A stretch of 64,000 nucleotides of DNA from NCBI RefSeq assembly GCF_030013595.1, contig NZ_CP122768.1, one strand, 5' to 3'. This document shows, in pieces, positions 40,970 to 64,000 of this stretch. Every line of letters starts with the position of its first letter. Positions within the stretch are counted from its first letter, which is position 1. The notes under the pieces were generated by a model. It had not been told where the DNA came from. It saw nothing but the letters and a program-made list of their open reading frames with translations, and did no database searches. The position numbers and the translations under genes are program-made. Source of the DNA: Escherichia coli (GTDB lineage: Bacteria; Pseudomonadota; Gammaproteobacteria; Enterobacterales; Enterobacteriaceae).

Positions 40970-40972
40970 TAC

Positions 40973-41996: not shown

Positions 41997-42085
41997 GCAA
42001 AACAGAGAAGAGCATCACCGGACGACGGGCTCATAACCCAATCCATCCGGGCGGCTGCCACCGCAGGTGTTCTTCTCTGTTTTGT
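41997..42085 (+). ncRNA. Long stem-loop element in the early-operon 5' leader
   Basis: 13-bp perfect inverted repeat aaaacagagaaga / tcttctctgtttt (41999-42011, 42071-42083), extendable with G-U pairs, enclosing a 59-nt GC-rich interior; 49 nt upstream of the yfdP-like start. Confidence 0.4.
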
Positions 42086-42133
42086 GGAGAAACCAACCGA
42101 CCTTGCAGGGTCGATATGATGAGGAGCAGCAAA

Positions 42134-42496
42134 ATGGCTAGCGAACGCAGTACTGATGTGCAGGCATTTATCGGGGAGCTGGACGGCGGCGTATTTGAAA
42201 CCAAAATCGGCGCAGTTCTCAGTGAGGTCGCTTCCGGTGTGATGAACACGAAAACCAAAGGGAAGGTCTCACTCAATCTGGAAATCGAACCGTTTGATGA
42301 GAACCGTGTGAAAATCAAACACAAACTCTCATATGTTCGCCCAACTAACCGCGGGAAAATTTCCGAAGAAGACACCACCGAAACGCCGATGTATGTCAAT
42401 CGCGGTGGTCGCCTGACTATTCTGCAGGAAGACCAGGGACAATTACTGACTCTTGCCGGTGAACCTGACGGAAAACTCCGCGCAGCAGGTCGTTAA
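42134..42496 (+). CDS. YfdP-like early protein
   Basis: 120 aa from ATG at 42134 with AGGAG RBS; CPS-53 yfdP-like. Confidence 0.75.
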   Translation: MASERSTDVQAFIGELDGGVFETKIGAVLSEVASGVMNTKTKGKVSLNLEIEPFDENRVKIKHKLSYVRPTNRGKISEEDTTETPMYVNRGGRLTILQEDQGQLLTLAGEPDGKLRAAGR

Positions 42497-42561
42497 TATC
42501 GTTCGTAATAAACTGATTATTTATCTCATCACTGAATATCTTTATATAGTGAGGACTTATT

Positions 42562-43386
42562 ATGTCTCAGAACTTAGACGCAACCGCAATTAATCAAATC
42601 CATGCCCTTATTTCTGCTCAGAGTGTTAATGAAATTATCAGTAAGATTGGTGCCGATGCTGTGGCATTGCCTGAGAATTTCCGCATTCATGATCTGGAAA
42701 AATTTAATTTAAATCGCTTCCGTTTCCGTGGTGCACTTTCCACTGCCAGCATCGATGATTTTACCCGTTATTCTAAAGATCTTGCAGATGAAGGCACCCG
42801 CTGCTTTATCGATGCCGATAATATGCGTGCCGTCAGTGTGCTTAACCTGGGTACTATTGATGAGCCAGGTCACGCAGATAACACTGCCACTCTCAAACTG
42901 AAAAAGACAGCACCGTTCTCTGCTCTGTTGTCTGTTAACGGCGAGCGTAACTCCCAGAAGTCACTGGCAGAATGGATCGAAGACTGGGCCGACTACCTTG
43001 TGGGCTTTGATGCTAATGGTGACGCCATTCAAGCAACAAAAGCGGCTGCGGCAGTCCGTAAAATCACGATTGAAGCAAACCATACCGCTGATTTTGAAGA
43101 TAATGACTTCAGCGGCAAACGCTCCCTGATGGAGTCTGTCGAAGCGAAGACCAAAGACATTATGCCAGTGGCATTTGAATTTAAATGCGTTCCGTTTGAA
43201 GGTCTGAAAGAACGTCCGTTTAAATTACGCCTCAGCATTATCACTGGCGATCGTCCTGTACTGGTTCTGCGCATTATTCAGCTGGAAGCGGTGCAGGAAG
43301 AAATGGCTAACGAATTTCGTGATCTGCTTGTTGAGAAATTCAAAGACAGCAAAGTAGAAACCTTTATTGGTACTTTCACCGCCTGA
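42562..43386 (+). CDS. YfdQ-like protein (DUF2303)
   Basis: 274-aa ORF, CPS-53 yfdQ-like. Confidence 0.8.
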
Positions 43387-43513
43387 TTTCATTACTGCAA
43401 ATGCCCCTGCGGGGGCATTTATGGAAACGTAATTAACTCAATAATCACCGGATGGTGAGGGCTTCCTTTTACCAGAATTCAGCGCGGTGCAGTGCATATA
43501 CGTGGAGAACAAA

Positions 43514-44050
43514 ATGTCATTTATTAAAACTTTTTCCGGGAAGCATTTTTATTATGACAAGATAAATAAAGACGACATCGATATTAACGATATCGCGGTT
43601 TCCCTTTCAAATATCTGTCGCTTTGCCGGTCATCTTTCGCACTTCTACAGCGTCGCCCAACATGCGGTTCTTTGCAGCCAGCTGGTGCCGCAGGAATTTG
43701 CTTTTGAAGCGTTAATGCATGATGCAACAGAAGCGTATTGCCAGGACATTCCCGCACCACTGAAACGCCTTCTTCCTGACTATAAACGGATGGAAGAAAA
43801 AATAGACGCCGTAATCCGTGAGAAATACGGGTTACCCCCAGTTATGAGTACACCCGTGAAATATGCCGATCTCATCATGCTGGCAACCGAACGCCGCGAT
43901 CTCGGGCTTGATGATGGCTCTTTCTGGCCTGTACTGGAAGGCATCCCGGCAACAGAGATGTTCAACGTGATTCCACTGGCACCGGGTCATGCCTACGGGA
44001 TGTTTATGGAACGTTTTAACGATTTATCGGAGTTACGCAAATGCGCATGA
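43514..44050 (+). CDS. HD-domain phosphohydrolase (YfdR-like)
   Basis: 178 aa from MSFIKTF; HD motif (ALMHDATEAY). Confidence 0.8.
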   Translation: MSFIKTFSGKHFYYDKINKDDIDINDIAVSLSNICRFAGHLSHFYSVAQHAVLCSQLVPQEFAFEALMHDATEAYCQDIPAPLKRLLPDYKRMEEKIDAVIREKYGLPPVMSTPVKYADLIMLATERRDLGLDDGSFWPVLEGIPATEMFNVIPLAPGHAYGMFMERFNDLSELRKCA

Positions 44051-44403
44051 ATGTTTTCGAAATGGAAGGGTTTCTTCGCGGGAAATGTGTACCGCGAGAT
44101 CTGAAAGTGAACGAAACAAATGCTGAGTACCTGTTACGTAAATTCGACGCGCTTGAAGCTAAATGTGCGGCACTGGAAAACAAAATAATACCAGTGTCAG
44201 CTGAACTGCCACCAGCAAATGAAAGTGTTCTGTTATTTGATGCTAACGGAGAAGGCTGGCTGATTGGCTGGCGTTCTCTCTGGTACACCTGGGGACAAAA
44301 AGAAACCGGAGAATGGCAGTGGACATTTCAGGTCGGGGACCTTGAAAACGTCAATATCACTCACTGGGCAGTAATGCCAAAAGCACCGGAGGCTGGAGCA
44401 TAA
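44041..44403 (+). CDS. YfdS-like protein with C-terminal DUF551
   Basis: 120-aa ORF overlapping the yfdR-like stop. Confidence 0.7.
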   Translation: MRMNVFEMEGFLRGKCVPRDLKVNETNAEYLLRKFDALEAKCAALENKIIPVSAELPPANESVLLFDANGEGWLIGWRSLWYTWGQKETGEWQWTFQVGDLENVNITHWAVMPKAPEAGA

Positions 44404-44708
44404 TGACCACATTTACCAATAAAGAACTGATTAAAGAAATCAAAGAACGAATCAGCAGCCTAGAGGTTCGAGACGATATTGAGCGCCGTGCTTATGAAAT
44501 CGCACTCGTATCTCTGGAAGTAGAGCCAGATGAACGCGAAGCCTATGAATTATTCATGGAAAAGCGTTTCGGTGACTTAGTAGATCGTCGGAGAGTAAAA
44601 AACGGCGATAACGAATACATGGCATGGGATATGACTCTCGGTTGGATCGTCTGGCAGCAACGAGCTGGTATCCATTTTTCAACAATGACACAGCAAGAGG
44701 TGAAATAA
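44403..44708 (+). CDS. YfdT-like protein
   Basis: 101-aa ORF. Confidence 0.7.
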   Translation: MTTFTNKELIKEIKERISSLEVRDDIERRAYEIALVSLEVEPDEREAYELFMEKRFGDLVDRRRVKNGDNEYMAWDMTLGWIVWQQRAGIHFSTMTQQEVK

Positions 44709-45079
44709 TGGAGCCATACAGCCTCACACTCGATGAGGCCTGTCAGTTTCTTAAGATATCCAGACCAACCGCCACCAACTGGATACGAACAGGCCGCCTA
44801 CAGGCAACACGTAAAGATCCAACCAAGCCAAAATCTCCTTACCTCACAACACGGCAAGCTTGCATTGCGGCGCTTCAGTCTCCGCTGCATACTGTCCAGG
44901 TGAGCGCGGGTGATGGCATAACAGAGGAAAGAAAATGTCACTCTTCCGCAGAAATGAAATATGGTATGCCTCGTATTCGCTCCCGGGCGGGAAACGAATT
45001 AAGGAATCTCTTGGCACAAAGGACAAGCGGCAAGCTCAGGAGTTGCACGACAAGCGAAAAGCAGAACTCTGGCGAGTAG
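44708..45079 (+). CDS. xis: Putative excisionase (Xis)
   Basis: ATG at 44708 overlapping the upstream stop (TAATG); N-terminal HTH-like region ([31 protein letters not shown]); overlaps the int start out of frame; the 3' end is uncertain. Confidence 0.5.
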
Positions 45080-46098
45080 AAAAGCTAGGGGATTTACCTG
45101 ATGTCACTTTTGAAGAGGCCTGCCTAAGATGGCTTGAGGAAAAAGCTGATAAAAAATCTCTCGATTCAGATAAAAGCCGGATTGAGTTCTGGCTTGAACA
45201 TTTTGAGGGTATAAGGCTTAAAGATATCTCGGAGGCAAAGATTTACTCTGCTGTAAGCAGAATGCATAACAGAAAGACGAAAGAAATATGGAAACAGAAA
45301 GTTCAGGCCGCCATCAGGAAAGGTAAAGAACCGCCTGTTTATGAACCAAAGCCAGTATCAACTCAGACAAAGGCAAAGCATCTTGCCATGATAAAGGCCA
45401 TTCTCCGTGCTGCAGAACGCGACTGGAAGTGGCTGGAAAAAGCGCCTGTCATCAAGATACCAGCGGTCAGAAACAAGCGAGTCAGATGGCTGGAAAAGGA
45501 GGAAGCAAAACGCCTTATTGATGAGTGCCCCGAACCACTGAAATCTGTCGTCAAGTTTGCGCTGGCAACTGGTCTGAGAAAGTCGAACATCATAAATCTG
45601 GAATGGCAACAAATCGACATGCAGCGACGAGTTGCCTGGGTGAATCCAGAAGAGAGCAAATCAAACCGCGCCATTGGTGTGGCGCTGAACGATACCGCCT
45701 GTAAAGTGTTGCGTGATCAAATAGGCAAGCATCACAAATGGGTGTTTGTACATACCAAGGCGGCTAAGCGAGCAGATGGAACATCAACGCCTGCGGTCAG
45801 GAAGATGCGCATCGACAGCAAGACATCATGGCTATCAGCTTGTCGTCGTGCAGGAATTGAAGATTTCCGTTTCCATGACCTCAGACACACCTGGGCAAGC
45901 TGGCTGATCCAGTCAGGCGTCCCATTATCTGTGCTTCAGGAAATGGGCGGATGGGAGTCCATAGAAATGGTTCGTAGGTATGCTCACCTTGCGCCTAATC
46001 ATTTGACAGAGCATGCAAGGAAAATAGACGACATTTTTGGTGATAATGTCCCAAATATGTCCCACTGTGGAATTATGGAGGATATAAAGAAGGCGTAA
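44935..46098 (+). CDS. int: Tyrosine integrase (DLP12 IntD type)
   Basis: 387 aa; C-terminal catalytic region with HDLRHT..Y; ends 16 bp from argU. Confidence 0.9.
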
Positions 46099-46113
46099 CT
46101 GATTGAATTGTAA

Positions 46114-46190
46114 TGGCGCGCCCTGCAGGATTCGAACCTGCGGCCCACGACTTAGAAGGTCGTTGCTCTATCCAACTGAGCTAAGGGCGC
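46114..46190 (-). tRNA. argU: tRNA-Arg (UCU) argU
   Basis: Reverse complement gcgcccttagctcagttggatagagcaacgaccttctaagtcgtgggccgcaggttcgaatcctgcagggcgcgcca is a cloverleaf with anticodon TCT and terminal CCA. Confidence 0.9.
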
Positions 46191-46432
46191 GTTGATACCG
46201 CAATGCGGTGTAATCGCGTGAATTATACGGTCAACCCTTGCTGAGTCAATGGCTTTTGATCTGGTTGCTGAACAAGTGAACGACCGCGTCTGATTTTCTG
46301 ATTTATTTCGCTATAGCGGCAAACAAACGTACATCGCTGCGCGTCTGAATCAAGAAAACTCGTATTTTCATGTATCAAAGTACAATTTCCCGCCCTAACG
46401 GAAAATTGTCCGATCCAATGAGACTGGTAACT

Positions 46433-47065
46433 ATGAAACCAACGTCGGTGATCATTATGGATACTCATCCTATCATCAGAATGTCTATTGAAGTTCTGTT
46501 GCAAAAAAACAATGAATTGCAAATTGTCCTGAAAACGGATGATTATCGCATAACCATCGATTATCTCCGAACCCGTCCTGTTGATTTAATCATTATGGAT
46601 ATAGACTTGCCCGGAACAGACGGTTTTACCTTCCTGAAAAGGATCAAACAAATCCAGAGCACAGTGAAAGTATTATTTTTATCATCGAAATCAGAATGCT
46701 TTTATGCTGGCAGAGCGATACAAGCTGGTGCTAACGGTTTTGTCAGTAAATGCAATGATCAGAATGATATTTTTCACGCCGTTCAGATGATCCTCTCCGG
46801 ATACACTTTTTTTCCCAGCGAAACGCTCAACTATATAAAAAGCAATAAATGCAGTACGAATAGTTCAACGGTCACGGTGCTATCTAATCGTGAAGTGACC
46901 ATATTACGTTATCTGGTTAGCGGATTATCCAATAAAGAAATTGCCGATAAGTTATTACTTAGCAATAAAACAGTTAGTGCGCATAAATCTAATATTTATG
47001 GCAAGCTAGGTTTGCATTCAATTGTAGAGCTTATCGACTACGCCAAATTATATGAATTAATATAA
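46433..47065 (+). CDS. fimZ: Response regulator FimZ (LuxR-family)
   Basis: 210 aa from MKPTSVIIMD; receiver domain plus LuxR HTH. Confidence 0.85.
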   Translation: MKPTSVIIMDTHPIIRMSIEVLLQKNNELQIVLKTDDYRITIDYLRTRPVDLIIMDIDLPGTDGFTFLKRIKQIQSTVKVLFLSSKSECFYAGRAIQAGANGFVSKCNDQNDIFHAVQMILSGYTFFPSETLNYIKSNKCSTNSSTVTVLSNREVTILRYLVSGLSNKEIADKLLLSNKTVSAHKSNIYGKLGLHSIVELIDYAKLYELI

Positions 47066-47067
47066 TA

Positions 47068-47583
47068 TTAATTGTAATTGATCATAAATATCGCATCCGC
47101 TTTCGCCACACCTGGCTGAACACCGCTGGCTAACGCTCGATAATTGGCAAAAAAGTTTAGTGTGACATTGCCATTTGCATCTACTTCCTCAGTCGGACTC
47201 GCCTCCCCCAGTGCGAGCCGGGAGCGATCGCTATTACGTAATTCGATGGCGACGGTTTGTGCCATTGCGGGATCATCCAGAGCCAGCAGGTTGGCATCAG
47301 ATGCCGGCGTTCCCGTAAATAAAATCGCAACTGAACCCGGAGGACATCCCTCCAGCCGCAGGCTAAAAGGGACGAGTGCCGTGGTATCGCCAGCGCTCAG
47401 TAATTGTGTCGTAGGCCATCTGCCTAAATCTACCGTCTTATCCTTATCCGCTGTGTTTACGGTACAGGAGAAATCAACAACGTTACCGTGCAAATTGATA
47501 TTAATCGTTCCTAAAGGGTCAACTGCCCATCCACTGGAACTCCACAGTAGCCCGCAGAAACAGCTAAAGAGTACTCTTCTCAT
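47068..47583 (-). CDS. sfmF: Fimbrial minor subunit SfmF
   Basis: 171 aa from MRRVLFSCF; fimbrial subunit. Confidence 0.8.
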   Translation of the reverse strand: MRRVLFSCFCGLLWSSSGWAVDPLGTININLHGNVVDFSCTVNTADKDKTVDLGRWPTTQLLSAGDTTALVPFSLRLEGCPPGSVAILFTGTPASDANLLALDDPAMAQTVAIELRNSDRSRLALGEASPTEEVDANGNVTLNFFANYRALASGVQPGVAKADAIFMINYN

Positions 47584-47593
47584 TCTCCGTACC

Positions 47594-48601
47594 TCATTGA
47601 TAATCGACGCGTAAATACCCCAGCGCGCTAAACGGCCCTTCGGTCGGTTTTTGACCGGTAATACTGATAGGCCAGGCGCGAAGTGTGACATTGGCTGCCG
47701 CAGCTGCATCCAGACGGAAAGGAATAACGCTATTGAGATCGTTAGGCGTGATCGGCGTATCGTTCTGATCGGCCACAATAAAACCTAAATCCTGATTGTC
47801 CGACACCATCGCCTGACCAGAAACGGCACTGGCTTCCAGACGCATTGTTAAATAAGCCTGCGCAGCAACATTCGTACATTTGATCGCAATGCTCTTGGTT
47901 TGCGGCATGACACCAGCTGGTCGATTCCCCGGCCCTGCCGCACTAAATAACGATGCGCCGATATCACCAAAATCAAATTCAACAATTTGCCCGGCATTTA
48001 ATTCGCAGTTTTGCGGTACTTCAACCCGGCCACCAAAACTAATGGTATAAACAGGTGTAACCAACGGATCGTTAGGCGTTGATGTCACATACACGGTAAA
48101 CATCACCTGTCTGGGGATCTCCACCATGTTAATAAAGGGACGAATAACCTTTAAACGAAATATCAAACGAGAATCCATCACCCCGAACGGAAGGTTTTGC
48201 GAAACGTTAGGATCTGTTCCCATACGGATATAATTTTGCGGGGGAAACTGAATATCCATCACGCTATCAACCAGACTCATCGCACCTAATAGATAATCAT
48301 TTAATTGCATATATTTATAATTATCGATAGTTTCCTGAACAATAAAGTTGGTGACATAACTACGGTATGTATAATTCACCAGCGTGCCGGGTGGACAAAT
48401 TGCTGACACACCTACCCAGCCGGATTTTTCCGGTAAAACAACAATCTGGCCTGGCTGGTTATTGGTGCTATTAAAGACATTTGAGAGATCATAGTGTTCA
48501 TCTTCTGCTACGCCAGTACTATTTGCACAAACAGTAGCCCAGGATATGTTTGCCAGACACAAACATGCCATTGCCAATAATAATCTGCAGATTATCTTCA
48601 T
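47594..48601 (-). CDS. sfmH: Fimbrial adhesin-like protein SfmH
   Basis: 335-aa ORF with signal peptide. Confidence 0.8.
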   Translation of the reverse strand: MKIICRLLLAMACLCLANISWATVCANSTGVAEDEHYDLSNVFNSTNNQPGQIVVLPEKSGWVGVSAICPPGTLVNYTYRSYVTNFIVQETIDNYKYMQLNDYLLGAMSLVDSVMDIQFPPQNYIRMGTDPNVSQNLPFGVMDSRLIFRLKVIRPFINMVEIPRQVMFTVYVTSTPNDPLVTPVYTISFGGRVEVPQNCELNAGQIVEFDFGDIGASLFSAAGPGNRPAGVMPQTKSIAIKCTNVAAQAYLTMRLEASAVSGQAMVSDNQDLGFIVADQNDTPITPNDLNSVIPFRLDAAAAANVTLRAWPISITGQKPTEGPFSALGYLRVDYQ

Positions 48602-48613
48602 TGATAATTTCCT

Positions 48614-51223
48614 TTATGAGCCAGAATGTGTGCAAACTGCCGAAATAACAGTGACGGCTTGCTGTAAGCTTTGCTTCGGCAATACATAGTGCGCAATGCA
48701 GCGTGAGTTCGCGCCGTCTCCCCACTGAACCAGTAATTCACCAGACAATGGCGCACCACTTAAATAAACTTGCCCGTCATCACCCACCATACTGGTTATT
48801 CCGGTACTGTTTTCCCGTACCAGTGATCCAAACGGCACCGGTTTTCCGCCCTGGGTAACGGTAATGAGCGCCCGCACGCCTATGCGGGTATCAAAATTGG
48901 CACGAACCAACGCGCCTTGCGTCGGCACAACACTGCTAATATTTTTTTCAACATCGATGGAATTCCCCATCGTATTGGTATCAAGCGCGATACGGTTATA
49001 CCGATAAACCGTGGCATACGGCATCACCGCATAGCCGCGCCAGTCGGTTAAAATGCCAGTTTGATTTTCAATGCGTACACCGCCTGCGCCAGGCGCTTTA
49101 ATCAAAACATTGGTATCCCCTAAAGGCTGGCTCAGCGTTATGCCATTTTCATGTCCGACCACACCGCCAGACAGCTGCCAGTTAACGTCATGTTGATCGC
49201 GGTCGTAGTTATACCCGACCCCCAGCGTACCGTAAGCGGCCTGCCAGTTTGCCGTAGCGCTGCCCGTATACCCATTATTCGAGGTATCGCCCTGGCTTAC
49301 GTGATAACTCAGGTTGTGGCCTTCCAGTAAGGTCCCACCTACACCTGCCAGCCAGCTATTTTGCCCGTTGCTGTTACGGTTGGCGTTAAAGGAGGCATAA
49401 GCGCGGTCGAGCGCATTTTCCCGGGTGTAGCGACGTTTGGTCAAAACATTGAAAGGCACTGAAACATTAAGTCCGACAATACGTTCGTTATCGGGGATCC
49501 CTACAGATTCATTCCACGAAAATGAGAGCGAATAACTGATGCCAACCCAGCTGCTGGTATACCCCACCTGATACCACGTATCTGAATCCGAAGTATTCCA
49601 GTATTTTTGATGGGTACCAGAAATATAAAGCGAGCCAAAGTCATTAAGTGATTGTGAAATATTTAACTGCAAACGGTCTTTACGGCTAAAGCGTAAATTG
49701 TGGTAATTCACGATTATCGGTTCATCGCGATACTCACCGTCATAATCGTAATCATATTCGTACCCCTCCATACGACGATACGCAACATCATCAAGGGTAT
49801 AAAAACCTTGTGTCGAATAGCGGTAACCCATTAACTGAAAATTGGTGCCGAAAGTGTTCATTGATTTCGCATAGAGGAAGCGAATAGAATCCCCCTCATG
49901 ACGACTATCGTCGGCTAACTGACTGCGCGCATGGGTCACATCCAGAGATACCGCCCCCCAGTTTCCGAGATTGCGCCCCAGCCCTAATAAAAAGGCGGTG
50001 TAATTGGCAGATAATTGCGTCCCGCCGTAGGCAGTAAATTCCTGTGGTAAACCGCCGAGTGCCGTGCCCTGAAAAAAGAAAGGTGATGATTGCTGACTAT
50101 TACCGCTACGAAAATCGCCCGCCGTCAGGTCAAATTTGAAACGCCCTTCGCGTTGTAAAATTGGCACTGTTGAATACGGAATCGTGTAATTCTGCTGATT
50201 GCCATCGCGCTCGTCGATGGTGACATCCAGATCGCCATTTGAAGATGTCGGGTGCAAATCTGTAATTTCAAAAGCGCCGGGGGAAACATAGCTTTGATAG
50301 ATAATAAAACCATTTTGCCGAATCGTTAGCTGGGCCGCCGTACGGGCAATCCCACGTACCGTTGGGGCAAACCCTTGCTGGCTATCAGGATACATATTAT
50401 CGGAAGAATAAAGCCGTACACCTCGAAATCCGACGCCATCGAAAATATCACTCCCTGTATTACCGTCTCCCATTACCAGTTCACTTTTCAGCGGAATAAT
50501 GGCGCGCTGTACCCAGGTGCCAATATTATTCCACTGTTCTGAATGATATCCATTTCCGCGAAAATAGTTCCAGGAACCATTGTTGCGTAAACGCCACGGG
50601 CCAATATTAATCCCGCTGAGTTCACTAAAAAAATAGCTATCGTTACCATTACCTCTGTTACCGGTGAAATTATAGTTCAGGAGTAAAGCAGGAATACCTT
50701 CATCCCACTCTTCAGGCGGAATGTAACCGTGAGCGCTACTCAACAACGCTATCTGAGGAATAGTGATGTTCAGGCGCATCGCTGCAAAATCAAAGTTAAT
50801 TGTGGCATCAGGTACAGCTTTCAGTAAATTGATGCATTTATTATTTTGCTGCTGGGCTAACTCAGGGAATGCACTGCTATTAAGGCCAATTCGTTCAAGG
50901 AGTGCCTGGTTAAAACAAGGCATTAACCCACCTGATTTATCACCTGTATTTACTGTCGTCGATTCAAATACGATATCCTGTGAACCAATGAACTCATCAT
51001 TACGCCAGAGATCCACCCGATACACGCCCGCAGGTTGATGATTACCTCTCTCAAAGCGCGATAAATCAGCAACGGATGTGCCATTCTCTAATAAAAATGC
51101 CGGGTTGAAATAACTTTCCGCATAGCTTAAAAAGGAGGGTAAAATGGCAAGAGATGAATAACAAATTCCGGCCAGACACCAGGTATACCTCTGCGGAATA
51201 TCCGTAGTAGTGGGTATTTTCAT
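48614..51223 (-). CDS. sfmD: Fimbrial usher SfmD
   Basis: 869-aa outer membrane usher. Confidence 0.9.
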
Positions 51224-51253
51224 AATTAGCTCTGATATTGTCAGATGATTCGG

Positions 51254-51946
51254 TTAGTTTAAGTTCACTTCTCTGACCGGGGTTACTGAACCATAATCAT
51301 TAACGGTCTGAAATTTCAGCTTTCCCTGCACTCCTGAGGGTAAGGGAATTTGTGAATTAACTCTGGGTGCAGCCATAGCATTCCCCAGTTTTTGGCTGCC
51401 CACTTGCAAGTTAACCAGGGTGACATAAAAAGGTGATGGATTATGAACATTGATATAGTTAGCGGATCGCGAAAACTTGAGTGTGTCCGGCGCTTCTGCG
51501 GGTAATTCTTGTAATTGAATTGGACGGAGAAATAATTTCATGCGCGATAAAATCGCCAGTTGCAAAACATTCCTGCCGTTCAATGCATTTTTATCTACCG
51601 AAGGGATCGTCTTAACATTCATCCAGAACAGAGACTCACGATCTGCCGCCAGCGGTGGACCGGTGTAAATAATACGCAAAGTATTTTCGCTTTTGGGTTC
51701 ACTAACAAACAGTGGCGGTGTAATGATGAATGACTTTTCTTTTACACCGCTGCTGTTTTCAATCCATGAATTGACCAGAAAGCGCTCATTGGTATGGCTA
51801 TTTCTAATCCATACCGCAGTCTGTTTAGCATCAGCGGGATAAATAATACGCGTGGCACCTAATGCGATCCCTCCGGCAGCATGGGCGCTGGTCGAAATGA
51901 TTAAATAAAATATAATGAGCATCAATAACTTTATTTTAGTCATCAT
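51254..51946 (-). CDS. sfmC: Fimbrial periplasmic chaperone SfmC
   Basis: 230-aa PapD-like chaperone. Confidence 0.9.
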
Positions 51947-52164
51947 AGTTAATACGCCTTGTGTATTCCTGACGGCAAAAATAAGGAGTATAAAGAAATG
52001 ATTGCTTTGGTTTCTTACAACACATCATTCCCTTTTCATTTAATAAAGCGGCATGATACAAAGTGAGCGTGATTTCGATTACATTGACACCATACCGCTT
52101 CAGACAACCGGTACATTACTTCGTTATAAGACGTGATATATAATTCAAAACTACGTAGTTTTGA

Positions 52165-52707
52165 TTATTCGTATCTCATAATAAAAGTCGCGTCAGCATT
52201 TGCTTGCCCTGCTGATGCACTTGTACCGGTGCCTTTATAACGTGCAGAAAAATGAAGAACGTTGGTCCCGGGGATCAAGTTCTGGTTGGTTGAGAAGCTA
52301 TTCCCATCAGGTTTGAGAATTGCGGATGTATTATCAAGTATTTCAATACCGACACCCGTTGCTGTTGTTGTATTAGTACTGGATGCAATGGCCAATAAAT
52401 TATCATTGATTGCATCCGCCTGACCAGAAAATGCAACGGCAGCATTAGCGGCAACGACAGGATCGCAGTCGTTCAACTGTATAGTGAATGGAATTAATGC
52501 AGAGGTATTACCAACAGCATTGAAAATATCGGTACGATATTGACCGAGTGTGACAACCTGGTCTGCCGAGTCAGTATTCACTGAACAGGCAGCATTCACC
52601 AGTTCGCCTTCAAAGTGAATTGTACCGCCATCTACAACGGCAGCATAACTACCCGTAGCGGCGAATAGTGCGGCGGCCAGCGCAGACGAAATAAATCTTA
52701 ATTTCAT
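52165..52707 (-). CDS. sfmA: Fimbrial major subunit SfmA
   Basis: 180 aa from [16 protein letters not shown]. Confidence 0.85.
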
Positions 52708-53177
52708 ATATATTCCTTCAATCTCATTTATCGACTCCACATCCGTATATAACCGATTACTTTATTTAAGACACTGATAGTAGTAAATTCCTTTTTATCC
52801 TCTAAGAATGTCTTAATTGAAAATATGCACTCTATTCTAAAAAATAGAGAGCCCCGTTAGATGAATACTTCCGCGCAAAATATATTCAACACAAATATAG
52901 ACCTGAAGCGGTAAATTACCAGGCTGAAAATTCTTTTTATATTGTCAGGTATTTCTTAAATTATCTTAATCCTTTGACAAGGAAATAAGTCAGTTCCAGA
53001 TTTACAACGCCATCATGGACGAAAAATGAAGCTTTCAATCTCAGCGACAGTGCGCCTCACCTTCGCACGAGGTCGCTTCACGCGATAAATCTGAAACGAA
53101 ACCTGACAGCGCGCCCCGCTTCTGACAAAATAGGCGCATCCCCTTCGACCTACGTAACAGATGGAATCCTCTCTCTG

Positions 53178-54044
53178 ATGGCAGCAAAGATTATTGACGG
53201 TAAAACGATTGCGCAGCAGGTGCGCTCTGAAGTTGCTCAAAAAGTTCAGGCGCGTATTGCAGCCGGACTGCGGGCACCAGGACTGGCCGTTGTGCTGGTG
53301 GGTAGTAACCCTGCATCGCAAATTTATGTCGCAAGCAAACGCAAGGCTTGTGAAGAAGTCGGGTTCGTCTCCCGCTCTTACGACCTCCCGGAAACCACCA
53401 GCGAAGCGGAGCTGCTGGAGCTTATCGATACGCTGAATGCCGACAACACCATCGATGGCATTCTGGTTCAACTGCCGTTACCGGCGGGTATTGATAACGT
53501 CAAAGTGCTGGAACGAATTCACCCGGACAAAGACGTAGACGGTTTCCATCCTTATAACGTCGGTCGCCTGTGCCAGCGCGCGCCGCGTCTGCGTCCCTGC
53601 ACCCCGCGCGGTATTGTCACGCTGCTTGAGCGTTACAACATTGATACCTTCGGCCTCAACGCCGTGGTGATTGGCGCATCGAATATCGTTGGCCGCCCGA
53701 TGAGCATGGAACTGCTACTGGCAGGTTGCACCACCACCGTGACTCACCGTTTCACTAAAAATCTGCGTCACCACGTAGAAAATGCCGATCTATTGATCGT
53801 TGCCGTCGGTAAGCCAGGCTTTATTCCCGGTGACTGGATCAAAGAAGGCGCAATTGTGATTGATGTCGGCATCAACCGTCTGGAAAATGGCAAGGTTGTG
53901 GGCGACGTCGTGTTTGAAGACGCGGCTAAACGCGCCTCATACATTACGCCTGTTCCCGGCGGCGTTGGCCCGATGACGGTTGCCACGCTGATTGAAAACA
54001 CGCTACAGGCGTGCGTTGAATATCATGATCCACAGGGTGAGTAA
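53178..54044 (+). CDS. folD: Bifunctional methylenetetrahydrofolate dehydrogenase / cyclohydrolase FolD
   Basis: 288 aa, [19 protein letters not shown]. Confidence 0.95.
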
Positions 54045-54045
54045 C

Positions 54046-54258
54046 ATGGCGACATTTTCTTTAGGTAAACATCCGCACGTTGAGCTGTGCGACTTGCTGA
54101 AACTGGAAGGCTGGAGCGAAAGCGGCGCGCAGGCGAAAATCGCGATTGCCGAAGGCCAGGTGAAAGTCGACGGTGCGGTTGAAACGCGCAAACGCTGCAA
54201 AATCGTTGCCGGGCAGACAGTGAGTTTTGCAGGTCACAGCGTACAGGTTGTTGCCTGA
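54046..54258 (+). CDS. ybcJ: S4-domain RNA-binding protein YbcJ
   Basis: 70 aa from MATFSLGKHPHVEL. Confidence 0.85.
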   Translation: MATFSLGKHPHVELCDLLKLEGWSESGAQAKIAIAEGQVKVDGAVETRKRCKIVAGQTVSFAGHSVQVVA

Positions 54259-54365
54259 TCCCTTTCCCGGCCTGTAACAACAGGCCGGTTCTCTTTTCAG
54301 ACTTTTGCCCTCTACGCCCCGTTCATCCATGCTGATAGCATCGACATTTTGCCGAAGCGACCATC

Positions 54366-54887
54366 ATGCCAACCGTTATTACGCACGCCGCCGTTCCCCT
54401 TTGCATTGGTTTAGGGTTGGGTTCGAAAGTCATCCCTCCGCGCCTGTTATTTGCCGGAATCATCCTGGCGATGCTGCCCGATGCCGACGTCTTGTCGTTT
54501 AAATTTGGCGTTGCTTACGGCAATGTTTTTGGTCATCGCGGGTTTACCCATTCGCTGGTGTTTGCGTTTGTTGTCCCGCTGTTATGTGTGCTGATTGGAC
54601 GTCGATGGTTCAGGGCTGGGCTGATTCGCTGCTGGCTGTTTTTAACCGTCTCGTTGTTATCGCACAGCTTGCTGGATTCGGTAACCACTGGCGGTAAAGG
54701 GGTTGGCTGGCTGTGGCCGTGGTCAGATGAACGCTTTTTCGCTCCCTGGCAGGTGATTAAAGTCGCGCCGTTTGCATTGTCTCGTTACAGCACACCGTAC
54801 GGGCATCAGGTGATAATTTCTGAATTGATGTGGGTGTGGTTGCCGGGGATGCTACTGATAGGAATGTTGTGGTGGCTCAGACGATAA
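54366..54887 (+). CDS. ybcI: Inner membrane protein YbcI
   Basis: 173-aa hydrophobic ORF. Confidence 0.75.
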   Translation: MPTVITHAAVPLCIGLGLGSKVIPPRLLFAGIILAMLPDADVLSFKFGVAYGNVFGHRGFTHSLVFAFVVPLLCVLIGRRWFRAGLIRCWLFLTVSLLSHSLLDSVTTGGKGVGWLWPWSDERFFAPWQVIKVAPFALSRYSTPYGHQVIISELMWVWLPGMLLIGMLWWLRR

Positions 54888-54922
54888 CCGGATGCGAAAA
54901 CTCGCATCCGGCAATAGCGCAA

Positions 54923-56308
54923 TTACTTACGACGCCAGGTGGTCCCTTGCGGGCCATCTTCCAGCACGATCCCCATCTCGTTAAGACGGTCACGCGCCGC
55001 ATCTGCCGCCGCCCAGTCTTTCGCTTTACGGGCATCCAGACGCTGTTGAATTAACGCTTCAATCTCAGCCACTTCGCTGTCGTCTGCCTGCGCGCCGCTT
55101 TGCAGGAACGCTTCCGGTTCTTGCTCCAGCAGGCCCAATACGGCGGAAAGTTTACGCAGATGAGACGCCATCGCGTTTGCCGCTGCCATATCTTCTGCTT
55201 TCAGACGGTTTACTTCACGCGCCATATCAAACAGTACGGAATAGGCTTCCGGGGTGTTGAAATCGTCGTCCATCGCTTCAATAAAGCGCGCTTCAAACGC
55301 TTCGCCACCCGCAGGCGCAACGGTTTTATCTGTGCCGCGCAGCGCAGTGTAGAGACGCTCCAGCGCCGCACGCGCCTGCTTCAGGTTCTCTTCGCTGTAG
55401 TTCAGCTGGCTGCGATAGTGGCCCGACATCAGGAAATAACGCACGGTTTCCGCGTCGTAGTATTTCAGCACATCGCGCACGGTAAAGAAGTTACCCAGCG
55501 ATTTGGACATCTTCTCGCGGTCAACCATCACCATTCCGGAATGCATCCAGTAGTTCACATACTGACCATCATGGGCACAGGTGGACTGAGCGATTTCGTT
55601 TTCGTGGTGTGGGAACATCAGGTCAGAACCGCCGCCGTGGATATCAAAGTGGTTACCCAGCTGCTTGCAGTTCATTGCCGAACATTCAATGTGCCAGCCT
55701 GGACGGCCCGGGCCCCACGGCGACGGCCAGCTCGGTTCGCCCTCTTTCGACATCTTCCACAGAACGAAATCCATCGGGTTGCGTTTGTCGTCGACCACGT
55801 CAACGCGCGCGCCTGCCTGCAGCTGGTCGAGATCCTGACGCGACAGCACGCCATATGTCGGATCGGTCGGTACGTCAAACATCACGTCGCCGTTGTCCGC
55901 CACATAAGCGTGACCTTTGGCGATCAGTTGTTCAGTGAGTTCAATAATTTCTGCGATATGGTGCGTCGCGCGCGGCTCCATATCCGGGCGCAGAATGTTC
56001 AAAGCATCAAAATCTTTGTGCATTTCGGCGATCATGCGATCCACCAGCGCCACAAAGCTTTCGCCATTTTCATTGGCGCGTTTGATGATTTTGTCGTCGA
56101 TATCAGTAATGTTGCGCACATACTTCAGCTTATAGCCGAGGAAACGCAGATAGCGCGCAACCACGTCAAAGGCAACAAAGGTACGCCCGTGACCGATATG
56201 ACAGAGATCGTAAACGGTGATTCCACACACGTACATGCCGACTTCCCCGGCGTGAATAGGCTTAAATTCCTCTTTTTGGCGTGTCAGAGTATTGAAGATT
56301 TTTAGCAT
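54923..56308 (-). CDS. cysS: Cysteine--tRNA ligase CysS
   Basis: 461 aa with HIGH and KMSKS motifs. Confidence 0.95.
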
Positions 56309-56481
56309 CGAAGATTCCGTTTAGACATGTGTGGGTAATTGAGTTGCGTATAATACCCATATTTCCCGCGCGAATCAGCATACATTGCGTGATGATCCGA
56401 TCGTGCGGTTATGCTATAACACCACCCTATGTATGACCCGAACCGGGTTGAAGCACCAATCAAACGGAACAGGATGCAAAA

Positions 56482-56976
56482 ATGGTTACTTTCCACACCA
56501 ATCACGGCGATATTGTCATCAAAACTTTTGACGATAAAGCACCTGAAACAGTTAAAAACTTCCTGGACTACTGCCGCGAAGGTTTTTACAACAACACCAT
56601 TTTCCACCGTGTAATCAACGGCTTTATGATTCAGGGCGGCGGTTTTGAGCCGGGCATGAAGCAAAAAACCACCAAAGACCCGATCAAAAACGAAGCCAAC
56701 AACGGTCTGAAAAATACCCGTGGTACGCTGGCAATGGCCCGTACTCAGGCACCGCACTCTGCAACTGCACAGTTCTTCATCAACGTGGTTGATAACGACT
56801 TCCTGAACTTCTCTGGCGAAAGCCTGCAAGGTTGGGGTTACTGCGTGTTTGCTGAAGTGGTTGAAGGCATGGACGTGGTAGACAAAATCAAAGGTGTTGC
56901 AACCGGTCGTAGCGGTATGCACCAGGACGTGCCAAAAGAAGACGTTATCATTGAAAGCGTGACCGTTAGCGAGTAA
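56482..56976 (+). CDS. ppiB: Peptidyl-prolyl cis-trans isomerase B
   Basis: 164-aa cyclophilin. Confidence 0.95.
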
Positions 56977-56978
56977 TC

Positions 56979-57701
56979 GTGGCGACACTCTTTATTGCAG
57001 ATCTTCATCTCTGCGCGGAAGAACCGGCGATCACCGCCGGTTTTCTGCGTTTTTTAGCGGGGGAAGCCCGCAAGGCCGACGCGCTGTATATTCTTGGCGA
57101 TCTGTTTGAAGCGTGGATTGGCGACGACGATCCCAACCCACTCCATCGCCAGATGGCGGCAGCGATCAAAGCGGTGTCCGATTCCGGTGTTCCCTGTTAT
57201 TTCATTCATGGCAACCGTGATTTTCTGCTCGGCAAACGCTTTGCCCGTGAAAGCGGCATGACGTTATTGCCGGAAGAAAAGGTGCTCGAACTGTATGGTC
57301 GCCGGGTGTTGATTATGCATGGCGACACGCTGTGCACCGATGACGCCGGTTATCAGGCTTTTCGCGCCAAAGTCCACAAACCCTGGCTGCAAACGCTATT
57401 CCTCGCCCTGCCGTTGTTTGTGCGCAAACGCATTGCCGCGCGAATGCGAGCGAACAGCAAAGAAGCCAACAGCAGTAAATCGCTGGCGATCATGGCCGTT
57501 AACCAAAACGCGGTGGTCAGTGCGATGGAAAAACATCAGGTGCAATGGCTGATTCACGGGCATACCCATCGCCCGGCAGTACATGAACTTATCGCCAATC
57601 AGCAACCTGCTTTCCGCGTCGTGCTGGGTGCCTGGCATACTGAAGGTTCAATGGTGAAAGTCACGGCAGATGACGTTGAGCTGATTCATTTTCCGTTTTA
57701 A
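56979..57701 (+). CDS. lpxH: UDP-2,3-diacylglucosamine hydrolase LpxH
   Basis: 240 aa, GTG start, metallophosphoesterase motifs. Confidence 0.9.
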
Positions 57702-57817
57702 ATACCCGCAACTTTGCTGATTTCACAGCCACGCAACCGTTTTCCTTGCTCTCTTTCCGTGCTATTCTCTGTGCCCTCTAAAGCCGAGAGTTGTGCACCA
57801 CAGGAGTTTTAAGACGC

Positions 57818-58327
57818 ATGTCTTCCCGCAATAATCCGGCGCGTGTCGCCATCGTGATGGGGTCCAAAAGCGACTGGGCTACCATGCAGTTCGCCGCCGA
57901 AATCTTCGAAATCCTGAATGTCCCACACCACGTTGAAGTGGTTTCTGCTCACCGCACCCCCGATAAACTGTTCAGCTTCGCCGAAAGTGCCGAAGAGAAC
58001 GGTTATCAGGTGATTATTGCGGGCGCAGGCGGCGCAGCGCACCTGCCAGGCATGATTGCCGCCAAAACGCTGGTGCCAGTGCTGGGCGTGCCAGTACAGA
58101 GCGCCGCACTGAGCGGTGTCGATAGCCTCTACTCCATCGTACAAATGCCGCGCGGCATTCCGGTGGGTACGCTGGCGATTGGTAAAGCTGGCGCGGCAAA
58201 CGCGGCGTTACTGGCAGCACAAATTCTTGCGACTCATGATAAAGAACTGCACCAGCGTCTGAATGACTGGCGCAAAGCCCAGACTGACGAAGTGCTGGAA
58301 AACCCAGACCCGCGAGGTGCGGCATGA
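57818..58327 (+). CDS. purE: N5-carboxyaminoimidazole ribonucleotide mutase PurE
   Basis: 169 aa from [16 protein letters not shown]. Confidence 0.95.
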
Positions 58328-59391
58328 AACAGGTTTGCGTCCTCGGTAACGGGCAGTTAGGCCGTATGCTGCGCCAGGCAGGCGAACCGTTAGGCATTGC
58401 TGTCTGGCCAGTCGGGCTGGACGCTGAACCGGCGGCGGTGCCTTTTCAACAAAGCGTGATTACCGCTGAGATCGAACGCTGGCCGGAAACCGCATTAACC
58501 CGCGAGCTGGCGCGCCATCCGGCCTTTGTGAACCGCGATGTATTCCCGATTATTGCTGACCGTCTGACTCAGAAGCAGCTTTTCGACAAGCTTCACCTAC
58601 CGACCGCACCGTGGCAGTTACTTGCCGATCGCAGCGAGTGGCCTGCGGTGTTTGATCGTTTAGGTGAGCTGGCGATTGTTAAGCGTCGCACTGGTGGCTA
58701 TGACGGACGCGGTCAATGGCGTTTACGCGCCGATGAAACCGAACAGTTACCGGCTGAATCCTACGGCGAATGTATTGTCGAGCAGGGCATAAACTTCTCT
58801 GGTGAAGTGTCGCTGGTTGGCGCGCGCGGCTTTGATGGCAGCACCGTGTTTTATCCGCTGACGCATAACCTGCATCAGGACGGTATTTTACGCACCAGCG
58901 TCGCTTTCCCGCAGGCCAACGCGCAGCAACAGGCACAAGCTGAAGAGATGTTGTCGGCGATTATGCAGGAGCTGGGCTATGTGGGCGTGATGGCGATGGA
59001 GTGTTTTGTCACCCCGCAAGGTCTGCTGATCAACGAACTGGCTCCGCGTGTGCATAACAGCGGTCACTGGACACAAAACGGTGCCAGCATCAGCCAGTTT
59101 GAGCTGCATCTGCGGGCGATTACCGATCTGCCGTTACCGCAACCGGTAGTGAATAGCCCGTCGGTGATGATCAACCTGATTGGTAGCGATGTGAATTATG
59201 ACTGGCTGAAACTGCCGCTGGTGCATCTGCACTGGTACGACAAAGAAGTCCGTCCGGGCCGTAAAGTGGGGCATCTGAATTTAACCGACAGCGACACATC
59301 GCGTCTGACCGCGACGCTGGAAGCCTTAATCCCGCTGCTGCCGCCGGAGTATGCCAGTGGCGTGATTTGGGCGCAGAGTAAGTTCAGTTAA
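58324..59391 (+). CDS. purK: N5-carboxyaminoimidazole ribonucleotide synthase PurK
   Basis: 355-aa ATP-grasp protein, overlaps the purE stop. Confidence 0.95.
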
Positions 59392-59414
59392 CCTGGTGCT
59401 CATATTCTTGCCGG

Positions 59415-59520
59415 ATTCGGCGTGAACGCCTTATCCGGCTTACCGCTCCGGTACCCATTGTAGGCCTGATAAGACGCGTCAAGCGTCGCATCAGGCATGG
59501 TGCGCCGATTGCCGGATGCT
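59415..59520. repeat. REP (repetitive extragenic palindromic) elements
   Basis: gcctgataagacgcgtcaagcgtcgcatcaggc and a related gccggat..atccggc palindrome between purK and the carbamate kinase gene. Confidence 0.7.
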
Positions 59521-59527
59521 CTCATCA

Positions 59528-60421
59528 CTACAGCGAAATACAGGTCCCCGCTTCGCCCGCCAGCGTCTCTTCAATCCGCGATAACGCCCCAATCCACGCA
59601 GGTTTGCCACGGCTTCTGACATAGCCACTCACCGCCATTACCTTCGGCCCCATCGAACCATCGGCTTTGGCAAATGGCGCTAACTCATCCGGTGTGGCAT
59701 GGCGAATGGCACGTTGCTGCGGCGTTCCCCAGTTTTCATATACCGCATCAGCATCGGTGAGGATCACCAGCCCATCGGCATTAATCTGCTCGGCGAGCAA
59801 CGCAGCGGCGAGATCTTTATCAATCACTGCTTCACTCCCTGCTCCGTCATCCGTCACAGGCACACCGCCGCCGCCACTGCAAATCACCACATGCCCCTCT
59901 TTGAGCAACAACTCGATGGCTTCGCTGTCGAGAATTTTACGCGGTTGCGGAGACGCCACCACCCGGCGCAAATATTTACCATCACGTTTCATCTGCCAGC
60001 CGTAAGCCGCTTCCAGTGCCTTTTGTTCTTCTGGCTGATAAACCGGACCGATAAACTTCTCTGGCTGCAAAAACGCCGGATCATCAGGCGAAACCTCAAT
60101 GCGCGTCAGCACCGTCGTCACGGGCGGCATCTGCGGCTGTGCGCTCAAGCTCTGCGCCAGCATATAGCCAATCATCCCCTGGCTTTCCGCCACCAGCACA
60201 TCCAGCGGATACGGTTCTACCTCTTTCCACGCCAGATTCTGTAACGCCAGCAGCCCCACCTGCGGCCCGTTGCCGTGAACAATCGCCAGCCGATAAGAAC
60301 GGGCCAGGCGCGCCAGCGCAGGTACAGCGCTGGCGATATTGCGATATTGATTTTCTGCCGTCAGCGCCTCACCGCGCTGAAGCAAGGCATTGCCCCCAAG
60401 AGCCACAACCAGTGTTTTCAT
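59528..60421 (-). CDS. ybcF: Carbamate kinase-like protein (YbcF / ArcC family)
   Basis: 297-aa amino-acid-kinase-fold ORF. Confidence 0.85.
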
Positions 60422-61233
60422 GGTTTTCCTTGTAATAATTGTTGACCAAGCCAGAACCCCAGCAGCGTATCTGCCCCTGACGTATGCCCCAGCGCCAGCA
60501 GCGAATCAATCGCAACAGCGGTACGTTTCGGGCAACTCAGAGCATGGACAAAGTGCAGGAGTGGCGAGGCGAAATATCCTTGCGCGGCATAACGTAAATA
60601 ACTGACGCTCACCGCTGTGGTAACGAGTTGAAGATTGTCGGAACAGGCAAAAAACTGGCGACCGGAGCGCGTATCTAAAGCGCCATAATACCAGGCCGCC
60701 AGCAGCATTCCGCTCAGCGTGTCATCATGACTTGGCGTTAATCCCGGACCTTTACCCAGCCAGTGCCGCCAGTCGGTCTTAACGCCATTGAGCGCGGCCT
60801 GAAAACAGTGACGAAACTGGCGTAATTCAGCAGGAAGCGGATCGCCTGCCGCCAACGCCAGTGGCCCGAAAAGCCCGGTTTCCTCCGCGCGTTGCATCCA
60901 TGCCGCTGCAAGCGGTTGAGGATGCGCAGGCGGCGTAATACGCAGCAAACAATAACGCTGTGGCTGTTTAACCGTGAAACGTCCGAGGCGAATCCCTTGA
61001 GCCACAACCTGTGGTCGTTCATTGCCGCATAATCCACCGCATAACGCATCGAATTGCGCGCGGCGAAGCACCCATCCTCCGGGGCCGAAACCACTACCCT
61101 GACGATGCAGCGTTAACAGTTCGCCGCTTTCCGTCATCAGGTTAATCGCCCGCCGCCACACTCCCGCTAACCGCCAGGACTGGCGATAATTCGGTGCGCT
61201 ACTACTGGCAAGCAGAGGATGGATGATCGTCAT
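60418..61233 (-). CDS. ylbF: YlbF (DUF2877 family)
   Basis: 271 aa from ATG at 61233 ([11 protein letters not shown]). Confidence 0.7.
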
Positions 61234-61243
61234 TGCGCGTTCC

Positions 61244-62503
61244 TCAACCAATCCCCATGCTTTCAGCCAGTGCTTCCAGCGCCTGTTCAAAGCACGCCAG
61301 CGGTGCCCGCACAGTGCCTGCGCCAATCTGCCCGATCCCCGCCTCTTTATGGGCGATACCGGTATTGATGAGTGGCGTAATGCCGGTTTCTACCACGCGA
61401 CGAATATCCAGCCCCAGGCACGCGCCCTGAAAATCCCAGCTTGGGATCTGCAACTGCATATTGCGTTCAAGGTAAATTTCCGCCATCTCTTCAGATACCG
61501 CTCTGGCCGCTTCCATGCCACCCGCACCGACAAAGCGCGTTACGCCAGGCGCTGCGATCATTGCCGCACCTCCGATACCAAAGGTTTCGGTAATTGCGCT
61601 ATCGCCCATATCCGGGTTCGCCTGCTCCTGCGAGAAGCCGGTGAAAAACAGACCTTGGGGAGTGTTTACAGGCGCAGTAAACCAGCGTTCGCCCAGCCCG
61701 CTGACCCGAATCCCGAACATATTGCCGTTGCGGGTCATAGCCGTGACGATGCTGCCTGCGCGGATCATCGCACCAGCATCCATCGCCGCCTTGCAGTAAG
61801 CCATCGCGAGGTTGAGGAAGAACTGATCGGTCACGCTGAGGAAATCCATCACTTCCGCGATGTGCTGTTTATCATGATCGAGGCGAGCAATTTGTGGGGC
61901 CAGCGCACGCATTAACAGTGCTGAGGAAGCAATATTGCGTTGATGGAACTCATCGCCCATGGTAATGCCCTGCGCCATCATCGCGGTAAGATCGATACCG
62001 TGCTCCATGCGCCCCAGCGCCGCGCTTAATACTGGCATTAACACATCGCGCATCCAGCGATGGCGAGTCAGGACATCTTCGCCGTAAGCGCCAAAACGCA
62101 TCACTTTGCCGATACCTTCGTTGAGGTTGCAGTACGCCCGGTTGCCGTCGGTCACGTTCTCGACCACCAGCATCGGCATACTGGCAGAAGTAATGCCGCC
62201 CATTGGCCCGACAGCATTCACATGGTGACAAGGAATGAAGTTCACTTCCCCCTGCTCCAGCATTGCCAGCGCCTGCGCTTCATCTTTCGCCCAGCCTTCA
62301 AACAGACATGCGCCCACACATGCCCCTTTCATGGGTCCGGTCATCTCCTGCCAGCGCATTGGCGGCCCGGCGTGAAGCAGTGTTTTGCCCTCGTTTAGTT
62401 CGCTGATAAGTGAAGAAGCCGGTTGCACATCCAGCCAGTGTGGACGAGCGCGACGAATTTGTTCGATAACCGCAGCATTGGCTTGCGCCACTGATGTAAA
62501 CAT
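61244..62503 (-). CDS. ylbE: YlbE (DUF1116 family), intact
   Basis: Single 419-aa ORF. Confidence 0.75.
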
Positions 62504-62512
62504 GGGAACCCC

Positions 62513-64000
62513 TTATTGCAAACGTTCTAATAAACGAGCCAGTTTTTTATTGCCGCCGGCGACTGGCGACCATTGGTAATGCACTACCGGTTTGCTGGCG
62601 CTTTGTAGCTCCAGCGCAAAGCTGCGTAATCCAATGTTAATCACGGCGACGTTTTCCAGTAATGACGGTGTATGTGGCTGTGCGGCAGGCGAGAGCGGAT
62701 GAATTAACGCTGCCGCCAGCAAGGTGGCTTCCGGTAGCGAACTCACGACCACAATCCCCGCATCTTCCAGCGTGGCGATTTGCTGCGAGCGGCATTGCGG
62801 GTCACGTTCGGTACCTGTCACCGTGGCAATGGCGTACAGCGGTTGGCTGTCTGAACGCGCGGCACAGGCTTTTTGCCAGGCGCTCACCAGCGAGGCAGCA
62901 GGATCGGCGGTCGCGCCGAAGCCAATCACGACATCAAGCAGCAACACGCGCACTTGCGGTTTAGCGCCGAGATCGGCAATTAACTGGTTGCGTAAGGTTG
63001 GGTCGATCATCGGATGGGGACGCCCGACGGTGTAGAAATCATCGCCGAGGTCAATGATCTGGTGACCATCGGCGTCCAGCATCATGCCGTGATGATGGGT
63101 ATCGTCGGCTTCCACGCCAAGGTGTCCGGCAAGTAATCCCGCCGCTTCGGCAGCCAGCGTACCGCCGGTATACAAACCGCAAATAAATCCGCTGCTGGCA
63201 GGCGTTATCGCGTTACGTCGCGCCGAGACGCGTGAAAGCAGGCAAGCCAGGCGTGCGGCCTCATCCAGCGAGGAGGCAAACCAGACATTCTCGTCGCGGG
63301 CCACCGCCGGGGTATAACCTAAAAACAGCGCCACCGTCGGTTTGCCAGTTGCTTTCATGGCATTAACAATTTTCAGACGCACAGCTTCGGCAGGTGGTTT
63401 TGAAACAAATGCCAGCACTTCGCTTTTCGCGTCGGCGCTTAACATTTCCAGCGCCGTTAGCGCACTGATGCCGCCCACTTCACGGCTGAGGTCGCGCCCG
63501 CCAAGACCAATCGCGTGAGTAATTCCCTCCTCTGCCAGCGCAATCTGTGAGCACAGCTCCTGAATCCCGGTACCGGAAGCGCCAATGACGCCAATGTTGC
63601 CTTCCGGCATCACGTTAGCAAAAGCCAGCGGCGTGGCGGCAATCATCGACGTACCGCAGTCCGGCCCCATCACCAGCAAGCCTTTATCGCGTGCGCGGGT
63701 TTTGAGTTGGATTTCATCTTCCAGCGTGACGTTATCGGAGAACATCATCACGTTGAGGTTGCGATCCAGCGCCTGATTCGCCAGCTCCGCCGCATACTCG
63801 CCAGCCACTGAAATCAGCGCCAGACTGGCATCGGGTAATTTCTGACAGGCACTGTCCCAGCGACGCACCTGCGTCAACGCCTGGCTGCTGCCTGAACCCT
63901 GCGCCAGTTGTTTTAGCGCCTCTTCAAGCTGTTGCATAATCGCCTGCGCGATCCCCGCATCCGCCGCTTCGCTACGAATTGCCACGCAAATATCGTTCGG
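62513..64000 (-). CDS. fdrA: FdrA (CoA-binding, succinyl-CoA-synthetase-alpha-like), 5' end beyond window
   Basis: ORF continues to the window edge; FdrA-like; N-terminus missing. Confidence 0.8.
   Translation of the reverse strand, partial: PNDICVAIRSEAADAGIAQAIMQQLEEALKQLAQGSGSSQALTQVRRWDSACQKLPDASLALISVAGEYAAELANQALDRNLNVMMFSDNVTLEDEIQLKTRARDKGLLVMGPDCGTSMIAATPLAFANVMPEGNIGVIGASGTGIQELCSQIALAEEGITHAIGLGGRDLSREVGGISALTALEMLSADAKSEVLAFVSKPPAEAVRLKIVNAMKATGKPTVALFLGYTPAVARDENVWFASSLDEAARLACLLSRVSARRNAITPASSGFICGLYTGGTLAAEAAGLLAGHLGVEADDTHHHGMMLDADGHQIIDLGDDFYTVGRPHPMIDPTLRNQLIADLGAKPQVRVLLLDVVIGFGATADPAASLVSAWQKACAARSDSQPLYAIATVTGTERDPQCRSQQIATLEDAGIVVVSSLPEATLLAAALIHPLSPAAQPHTPSLLENVAVINIGLRSFALELQSASKPVVHYQWSPVAGGNKKLARLLERLQ

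Follow-up and report, generated by a model that had tools for sequence, protein, structure and literature searches.

For the ylbE locus of Escherichia coli the closest described system is the oxamic transcarbamylase (OXTCase) of strain K-12, the enzyme made up of AllF, AllG and AllH. The purified K-12 proteins interconvert oxamate plus carbamoyl phosphate and oxalurate plus inorganic phosphate, with Km values of 1.3 mM for carbamoyl phosphate and 36.9 mM for oxamate (Kim & Kim 2024, PMC11326118). In the same work mutants lacking allF or allG formed no oxamate from allantoin, and the mutant lacking allH yielded 1.2 mM as compared to 17.7 mM in the wild type. Complementation of the allG mutant with the single gene did not restore oxamate, and an allFGH triple mutant was fully rescued only when all three genes were supplied together. 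The three genes form one operon with allK (PMC11326118), whose product functions as a catabolic carbamate kinase (PMC9843812, PMC11326118). In Pfam the family PF06545, earlier called DUF1116, now bears the name "Oxamate carbamoyltransferase subunit AllG".

Under the name ylbE the gene for AllG has been described as a pseudogene of K-12. Older annotations carried it in pseudogene fragments, e.g., one of 252 nucleotides, and a resequencing study reported two changes, 547,694 A>G and 547,831 +G, which turn the annotated pseudogene into an open reading frame (PMC5460176). The frameshift, absent from all other E. coli, has been judged a probable sequencing error, a suspicion also raised by UniProt and CanOE (PMC3364942). 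Corrections have been announced for the record U00096.3, and EcoGene curators as well as two groups have regarded the differences as errors in U00096.2 (PMC3531124). In another paper the differences at gene nucleotides 114 (silent) and 253 are described as known variations of MG1655 stocks (PMC4404585). For strain NCM3722, finally, a frameshift mutation is on record which, when compared with the MG1655 reference, "restored an intact ancestral gene".

The locus was analysed in a window of E. coli DNA, by which the whole stretch of 64,000 nucleotides is meant. According to the list of open reading frames of this window, ylbE is a single uninterrupted frame with an ATG start, 419 codons and a TGA stop (Table 1). 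At the base composition of the window (GC 51%, stop probability 0.043 per codon) the number of frames this long that chance would yield in six frames of 64 kb is about 6e-5. The protein matched PF06545 with an E-value of 1.4e-97 and 325.8 bits (cut-off 27) over profile positions 1-215 of 215, so that the gathering score was exceeded over the full domain. Both results bear out an earlier note on this DNA, which had read ylbE as one intact frame of 419 amino acids and had not given the strand. A search of NCBIfam returned no model matching YlbE or YlbF. Two independent genomes carry an identical allele, with 100% identity across the gene, and the ylbE annotated in strain HCP5S3_I2 is likewise 100% identical at the DNA level. 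The feature is almost certainly the ordinary intact chromosomal ylbE (allG), the second gene of the allF-allG-allH-allK operon in the E. coli allantoin regulon, and its intact frame is the normal state for MG1655 as for practically every E. coli. It is an already known, ordinary gene, and nothing in the ylbE of the window is novel.

Table 1. Features of the ylbE locus, with positions counted from the first base of the window
Feature	Position	Strand	Evidence or remark
fdrA (allF), 3' 1488 nt (495 codons and stop)	62513..64000	-	CoA_binding and Ligase_CoA (Pfam), SCS-alpha-like; 5' 180 nt beyond the window end
ylbE (allG) CDS	61244..62503	-	open reading frame; PF06545; 417/419 amino acids identical to MG1655 YlbE
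Gene nt 114, G, third base of codon 38 (GAG)	62390..62390	-	second difference between old and current K-12 records
GGGGG homopolymer, gene nt 252-256 (CCCCC on + strand)	62248..62252	-	site of the historical K-12 "frameshift"
ylbF (allH) CDS, 271 aa	60418..61233	-	PF11392 AllH, E=1.4e-29; MG1655 ylbF of the same length with 3 amino acid differences
ybcF (allK), catabolic carbamate kinase, 297 aa	59528..60421	-	NF006926 equivalog, 620 bits, cut-off 416

The genes allF, allG, allH and allK are all open, with allF cut by the window end, and they stand in the order of the operon. The FdrA portion scored 899.8 bits with the NCBIfam model NF004760 and covers model positions 61-555 of 555. An open reading frame of 490 amino acids with a GTG start (62513-63985, minus strand) arises only from the cut at the end of the window, as the fdrA frame is open to base 64000. 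ylbE starts 9 nt after the stop of fdrA, ylbF starts 10 nt after the stop of ylbE, and the start of ybcF overlaps the stop of ylbF (ATGA); junctions as tight as these are consistent with one operon. The four genes share 96.8-98.2% nucleotide identity with MG1655, with the greatest divergence in the fdrA portion (96.8%, 14 amino acid changes in 495 residues). The promoter of the operon lies upstream of fdrA and outside the window, and in a promoter and terminator scan of positions 59200-64000 the hits were outnumbered by those in shuffled controls and allowed no interpretation. The genes allE-allC-allD are located beyond the window; in HCP5S3_I2 they stand directly upstream of the operon in divergent orientation, as in K-12. 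The convergent spacer between ybcF and purK (59391-59527) contains REP-like palindromic units (GCCTGATGCGACGCTTGACGCGTCTTATCAGGCCTAC). It measures about 136 bp in the lineage of the window (136 bp in HCP5S3_I2) as compared to 194 bp in MG1655, with fewer repeat units.

In the current MG1655 reference, NC_000913.3, ylbE (b4572, YP_009029994.1) is located at 548357..549616 as a 1260-bp coding sequence for 419 amino acids and is given without a pseudogene flag. Alignment of the window gene with this sequence yielded 23 substitutions and no indels over 1260 nt (98.17% identity), with start and stop alike. As many as 21 of the 23 substitutions are synonymous, which indicates purifying selection. 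The two proteins are identical in 417 of 419 amino acids; the window has methionine 81 and histidine 168 where MG1655 has isoleucine and arginine, and both changes (I81M and R168H) look conservative. Length, start, stop and frame are those of MG1655 YlbE/AllG (UniProt P77129), and the gene order fdrA-ylbE-ylbF-ybcF is the same and likewise adjoins purK/purE. The window protein is thus a colinear and near-identical orthologue of the characterised K-12 AllG. The run of five G at gene nucleotides 252-256 and the G at nucleotide 114 are present in both sequences. The earlier note had taken ylbE for a frameshifted pseudogene in the MG1655 reference and had named the same intact frame in MG1655 as the observation that would speak against this. 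The alignment gave exactly this observation, and for NC_000913.3 the pseudogene label has to be given up.

The source of the label can be seen in the record of the K-12 strain W3110. In the RefSeq entry NC_007779.1 (547581-548839) ylbE is still a "frameshifted" coding sequence of 1259 bp, and it differs from version 3 of MG1655 at two places only, an A at nucleotide 114 and GGGG in place of GGGGG. The same two changes have been reported in the literature relative to the old MG1655 reference. The state of ylbE in that reference (U00096.2 / NC_000913.2) was deduced from the papers cited above with the W3110 record as a proxy, complemented by a simulated deletion. When one G was removed in silico from the run of five, either in the window gene or in version 3 of MG1655, the protein ended in ...LEQGK, codon 87 being a stop. 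The old K-12 "pseudogene" allele (U00096.2 according to the papers, and the W3110 record) is the same locus, otherwise identical to MG1655 version 3, which carries four G, an A at nucleotide 114 and a stop at codon 87, whereas the window has five G and a G at nucleotide 114. Neither the window nor the current MG1655 sequence belongs to this frameshifted allele of 1259 bp; the W3110 record does. There is very little doubt that "frameshifted pseudogene" describes a property of the older MG1655 record, one G short in the homopolymer and with an A at nucleotide 114. The label is accurate for the reference before 2013 and for the present record of W3110, and not for the present MG1655 reference.

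The shorter run of four G might alternatively be a real polymorphism of some K-12 sublines, W3110 or the clone originally sequenced, which arose by slippage in the run of five and switches ylbE on or off between stocks. The W3110 record lends some weight to this idea, as there the missing G is linked with the A at nucleotide 114, and such a linked substitution is atypical of a simple homopolymer miscall. The restoration described for NCM3722 relative to the MG1655 reference points in the same direction, and so does the wording "genetic variations in MG1655 stock cultures" in PMC4404585. Against it stand the view of the EcoGene curators and of two groups, for whom the differences were errors of U00096.2, and the suspicion of a sequencing error voiced by UniProt and CanOE. 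We regard a real polymorphism of this kind as unlikely, and its existence would leave the assessment of the window as it is. The farther-reaching proposal that the run of five G is a slippage hot spot by which certain sublines of K-12 lose oxamic transcarbamylase, with the four G and A114 of the W3110 type being real and the old pseudogene a true laboratory polymorphism, is more doubtful still.

Of the complete E. coli genomes, 5426 in number, 5420 have a match to ylbE, and at least 80% of the gene is covered in 5417. Exactly 1260 bp were spanned in 59 of 60 hits sampled evenly down the ranking. Ungapped matches of 1260 bp were also obtained for the K-12 derivatives MG1655_TMP32XR2, MG1655p and NEB5-alpha. 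As the intact frame occurs in about 99.8% of the genomes, intactness of ylbE is uninformative on the strain background. That MG1655 truly carries a frameshifted ylbE, so that an intact frame would diagnose a non-MG1655 background, is very improbable. The fragments of the older annotations, the flag "frameshifted" still attached to W3110 and the fact that the window is indeed non-K-12 by SNPs would fit such a view, but it is contradicted by the intact coding sequence in NC_000913.3, by the ungapped matches of the three K-12 derivatives, by papers which ascribe the frameshift to an error of the reference or to variation between stocks, and by the near-universal occurrence of the intact frame. 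The step taken in the earlier note from an intact ylbE to a non-MG1655 background hence fails as an inference, since 5417 of 5426 genomes hold the gene, while the conclusion itself was correct, as seen from the 23 nucleotide differences in ylbE and from the core sequence around the operon.

The flanking core blocks share 96.6-98.7% identity with MG1655. The background of the window is non-K-12 as judged by SNP divergence and prophage content, and not by the frame of ylbE. The window is 99.98% identical to its closest complete genome, HCP5S3_I2, an isolate from pig faeces (UK; NZ_CM149870.1), with 2 mismatches in 8757 bp (positions 55244-64000) and 3 in 14065 bp (positions 46332-60396).

A large lambdoid prophage occupies the argU site at about 900-46190 of the window, with the tRNA-Arg(tct) gene at 46114-46190 on the minus strand and an intD-like integrase adjoining. 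To judge from the matching annotation of HCP5S3_I2, it includes head and tail genes. The cryptic prophage DLP12 of K-12 matches it only in pieces (1-2286, 4213-5660, 27863-34419 and from 44840 onward). An nmpC-like porin frame of 385 amino acids (32654-33811, plus strand) is uninterrupted in the prophage of the window, whereas nmpC of MG1655 is split by IS5B. Unlike ylbE, nmpC would be a valid pseudogene marker for the distinction of K-12 from non-K-12 strains. In HCP5S3_I2 a block of about 13 kb, corresponding to positions 33229-46348, is inverted between two copies of ISVsa5 (IS10-like) which split the porin gene; in the window this block is free of insertion sequences and not inverted, so that the DNA must stem from a close relative of HCP5S3_I2 and not from that assembly.

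With regard to structure, a single-sequence AlphaFold model of YlbE had a pLDDT of 41.7 and was unusable. A model from an alignment of 12 sequences, composed of plasmid-borne homologues and the sequence of PDB entry 3CLQ, reached a pLDDT of 89.9 and a pTM of 0.91. The entry 3CLQ is the sole solved member of PF06545, a structural genomics deposition of 2008 from Enterococcus faecalis V583 with 44-46% identity and no function assigned by the depositors. The predicted YlbE structure has the fold of this protein. With the classical transcarbamylases (ATCase PyrB, OTCase ArgI/ArgF, YgeW) the enzyme shares the type of reaction, i.e., carbamoyl transfer between phosphate and an amine or amide; the OTCase_N and OTCase_C domains or their fold were not found in YlbE. 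The modelled fold supports what has been published on the enzyme, namely that it has no relationship to ATCase and OTCase. Residues invariant across the 12 homologues include histidine 44, glycine 46, proline 47, the pair glycine 183-aspartate 184, histidine 187, arginine 189, the pair asparagine 259-glycine 260, and the triplet glycine 300-aspartate 301-serine 302. Residues 81 and 168, which differ from K-12, are not in conserved columns.

By analogy to the K-12 system, AllG of the window would assemble with AllF (FdrA) and AllH (YlbF) into oxamic transcarbamylase and would be an obligatory subunit of it. The complex would phosphorolyse oxalurate to oxamate and carbamoyl phosphate, AllK would then convert carbamoyl phosphate and ADP to ATP, NH3 and CO2, and AllFGH and AllK together would complete the anaerobic recovery of nitrogen from allantoin. 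From the protein identity of 99.5% and the 21 of 23 synonymous substitutions we infer that the AllG allele with methionine 81 and histidine 168 is functional. That the gene is open here but decaying or non-functional, through one of these two differences from the characterised K-12 protein or through absent expression, is hardly credible in view of the synonymous substitutions, the position of both residues outside the columns conserved among the 12 homologues and in the comparison with 3CLQ, the intactness of all four operon genes and the occurrence of the identical allele in two other genomes.

Clusters encoding DUF2877, FdrA, DUF1116 and carbamate kinase proteins were also observed elsewhere, as yahE-yahF-yahG...yahI in K-12 (seen on F128) and on many conjugative IncF and other plasmids. 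They have the same set of three proteins plus a carbamate kinase gene as allFGHK, which suggests the same chemistry, in which an N-carbamoyl compound is phosphorolysed and the product passes to carbamate kinase. Their DUF1116 proteins share 45-51% identity with YlbE and extend about 55 residues further at the N-terminus. Their neighbours differ from those of the allantoin operon and include a cysteine hydrolase, a ring-opening amidohydrolase, an amidohydrolase (deaminase) of the YahJ type, and nucleobase/cytosine permeases; with such different neighbours the substrates are probably different as well. More distant DUF1116 proteins (27-38% identity) were seen in Methylocystis, Azospirillum, Paraburkholderia and Variovorax. 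These distant genes had neither FdrA nor DUF2877 beside them in the stretches examined, which were taken from incomplete PLSDB gene tables. The Azospirillum gene adjoins hpxZ (oxalurate catabolism), an amidase and an operon resembling that of xanthine dehydrogenase.

The ylbE "pseudogene" goes back to the MG1655 reference before 2013 and is unfit as a strain marker, and the additional G in ylbE has been repeatedly re-reported as a mutation in resequencing studies (e.g., PMC5460176). For the gene, now allG, a function is backed by experiment, since it encodes one part of an unusual transcarbamylase with three subunits which is unrelated to ATCase and OTCase. We know of no paralogous DUF2877-FdrA-DUF1116-carbamate kinase cluster that has been characterised; these clusters may encode AllFGH-like phosphorolytic transcarbamylases which act on other N-carbamoyl compounds.
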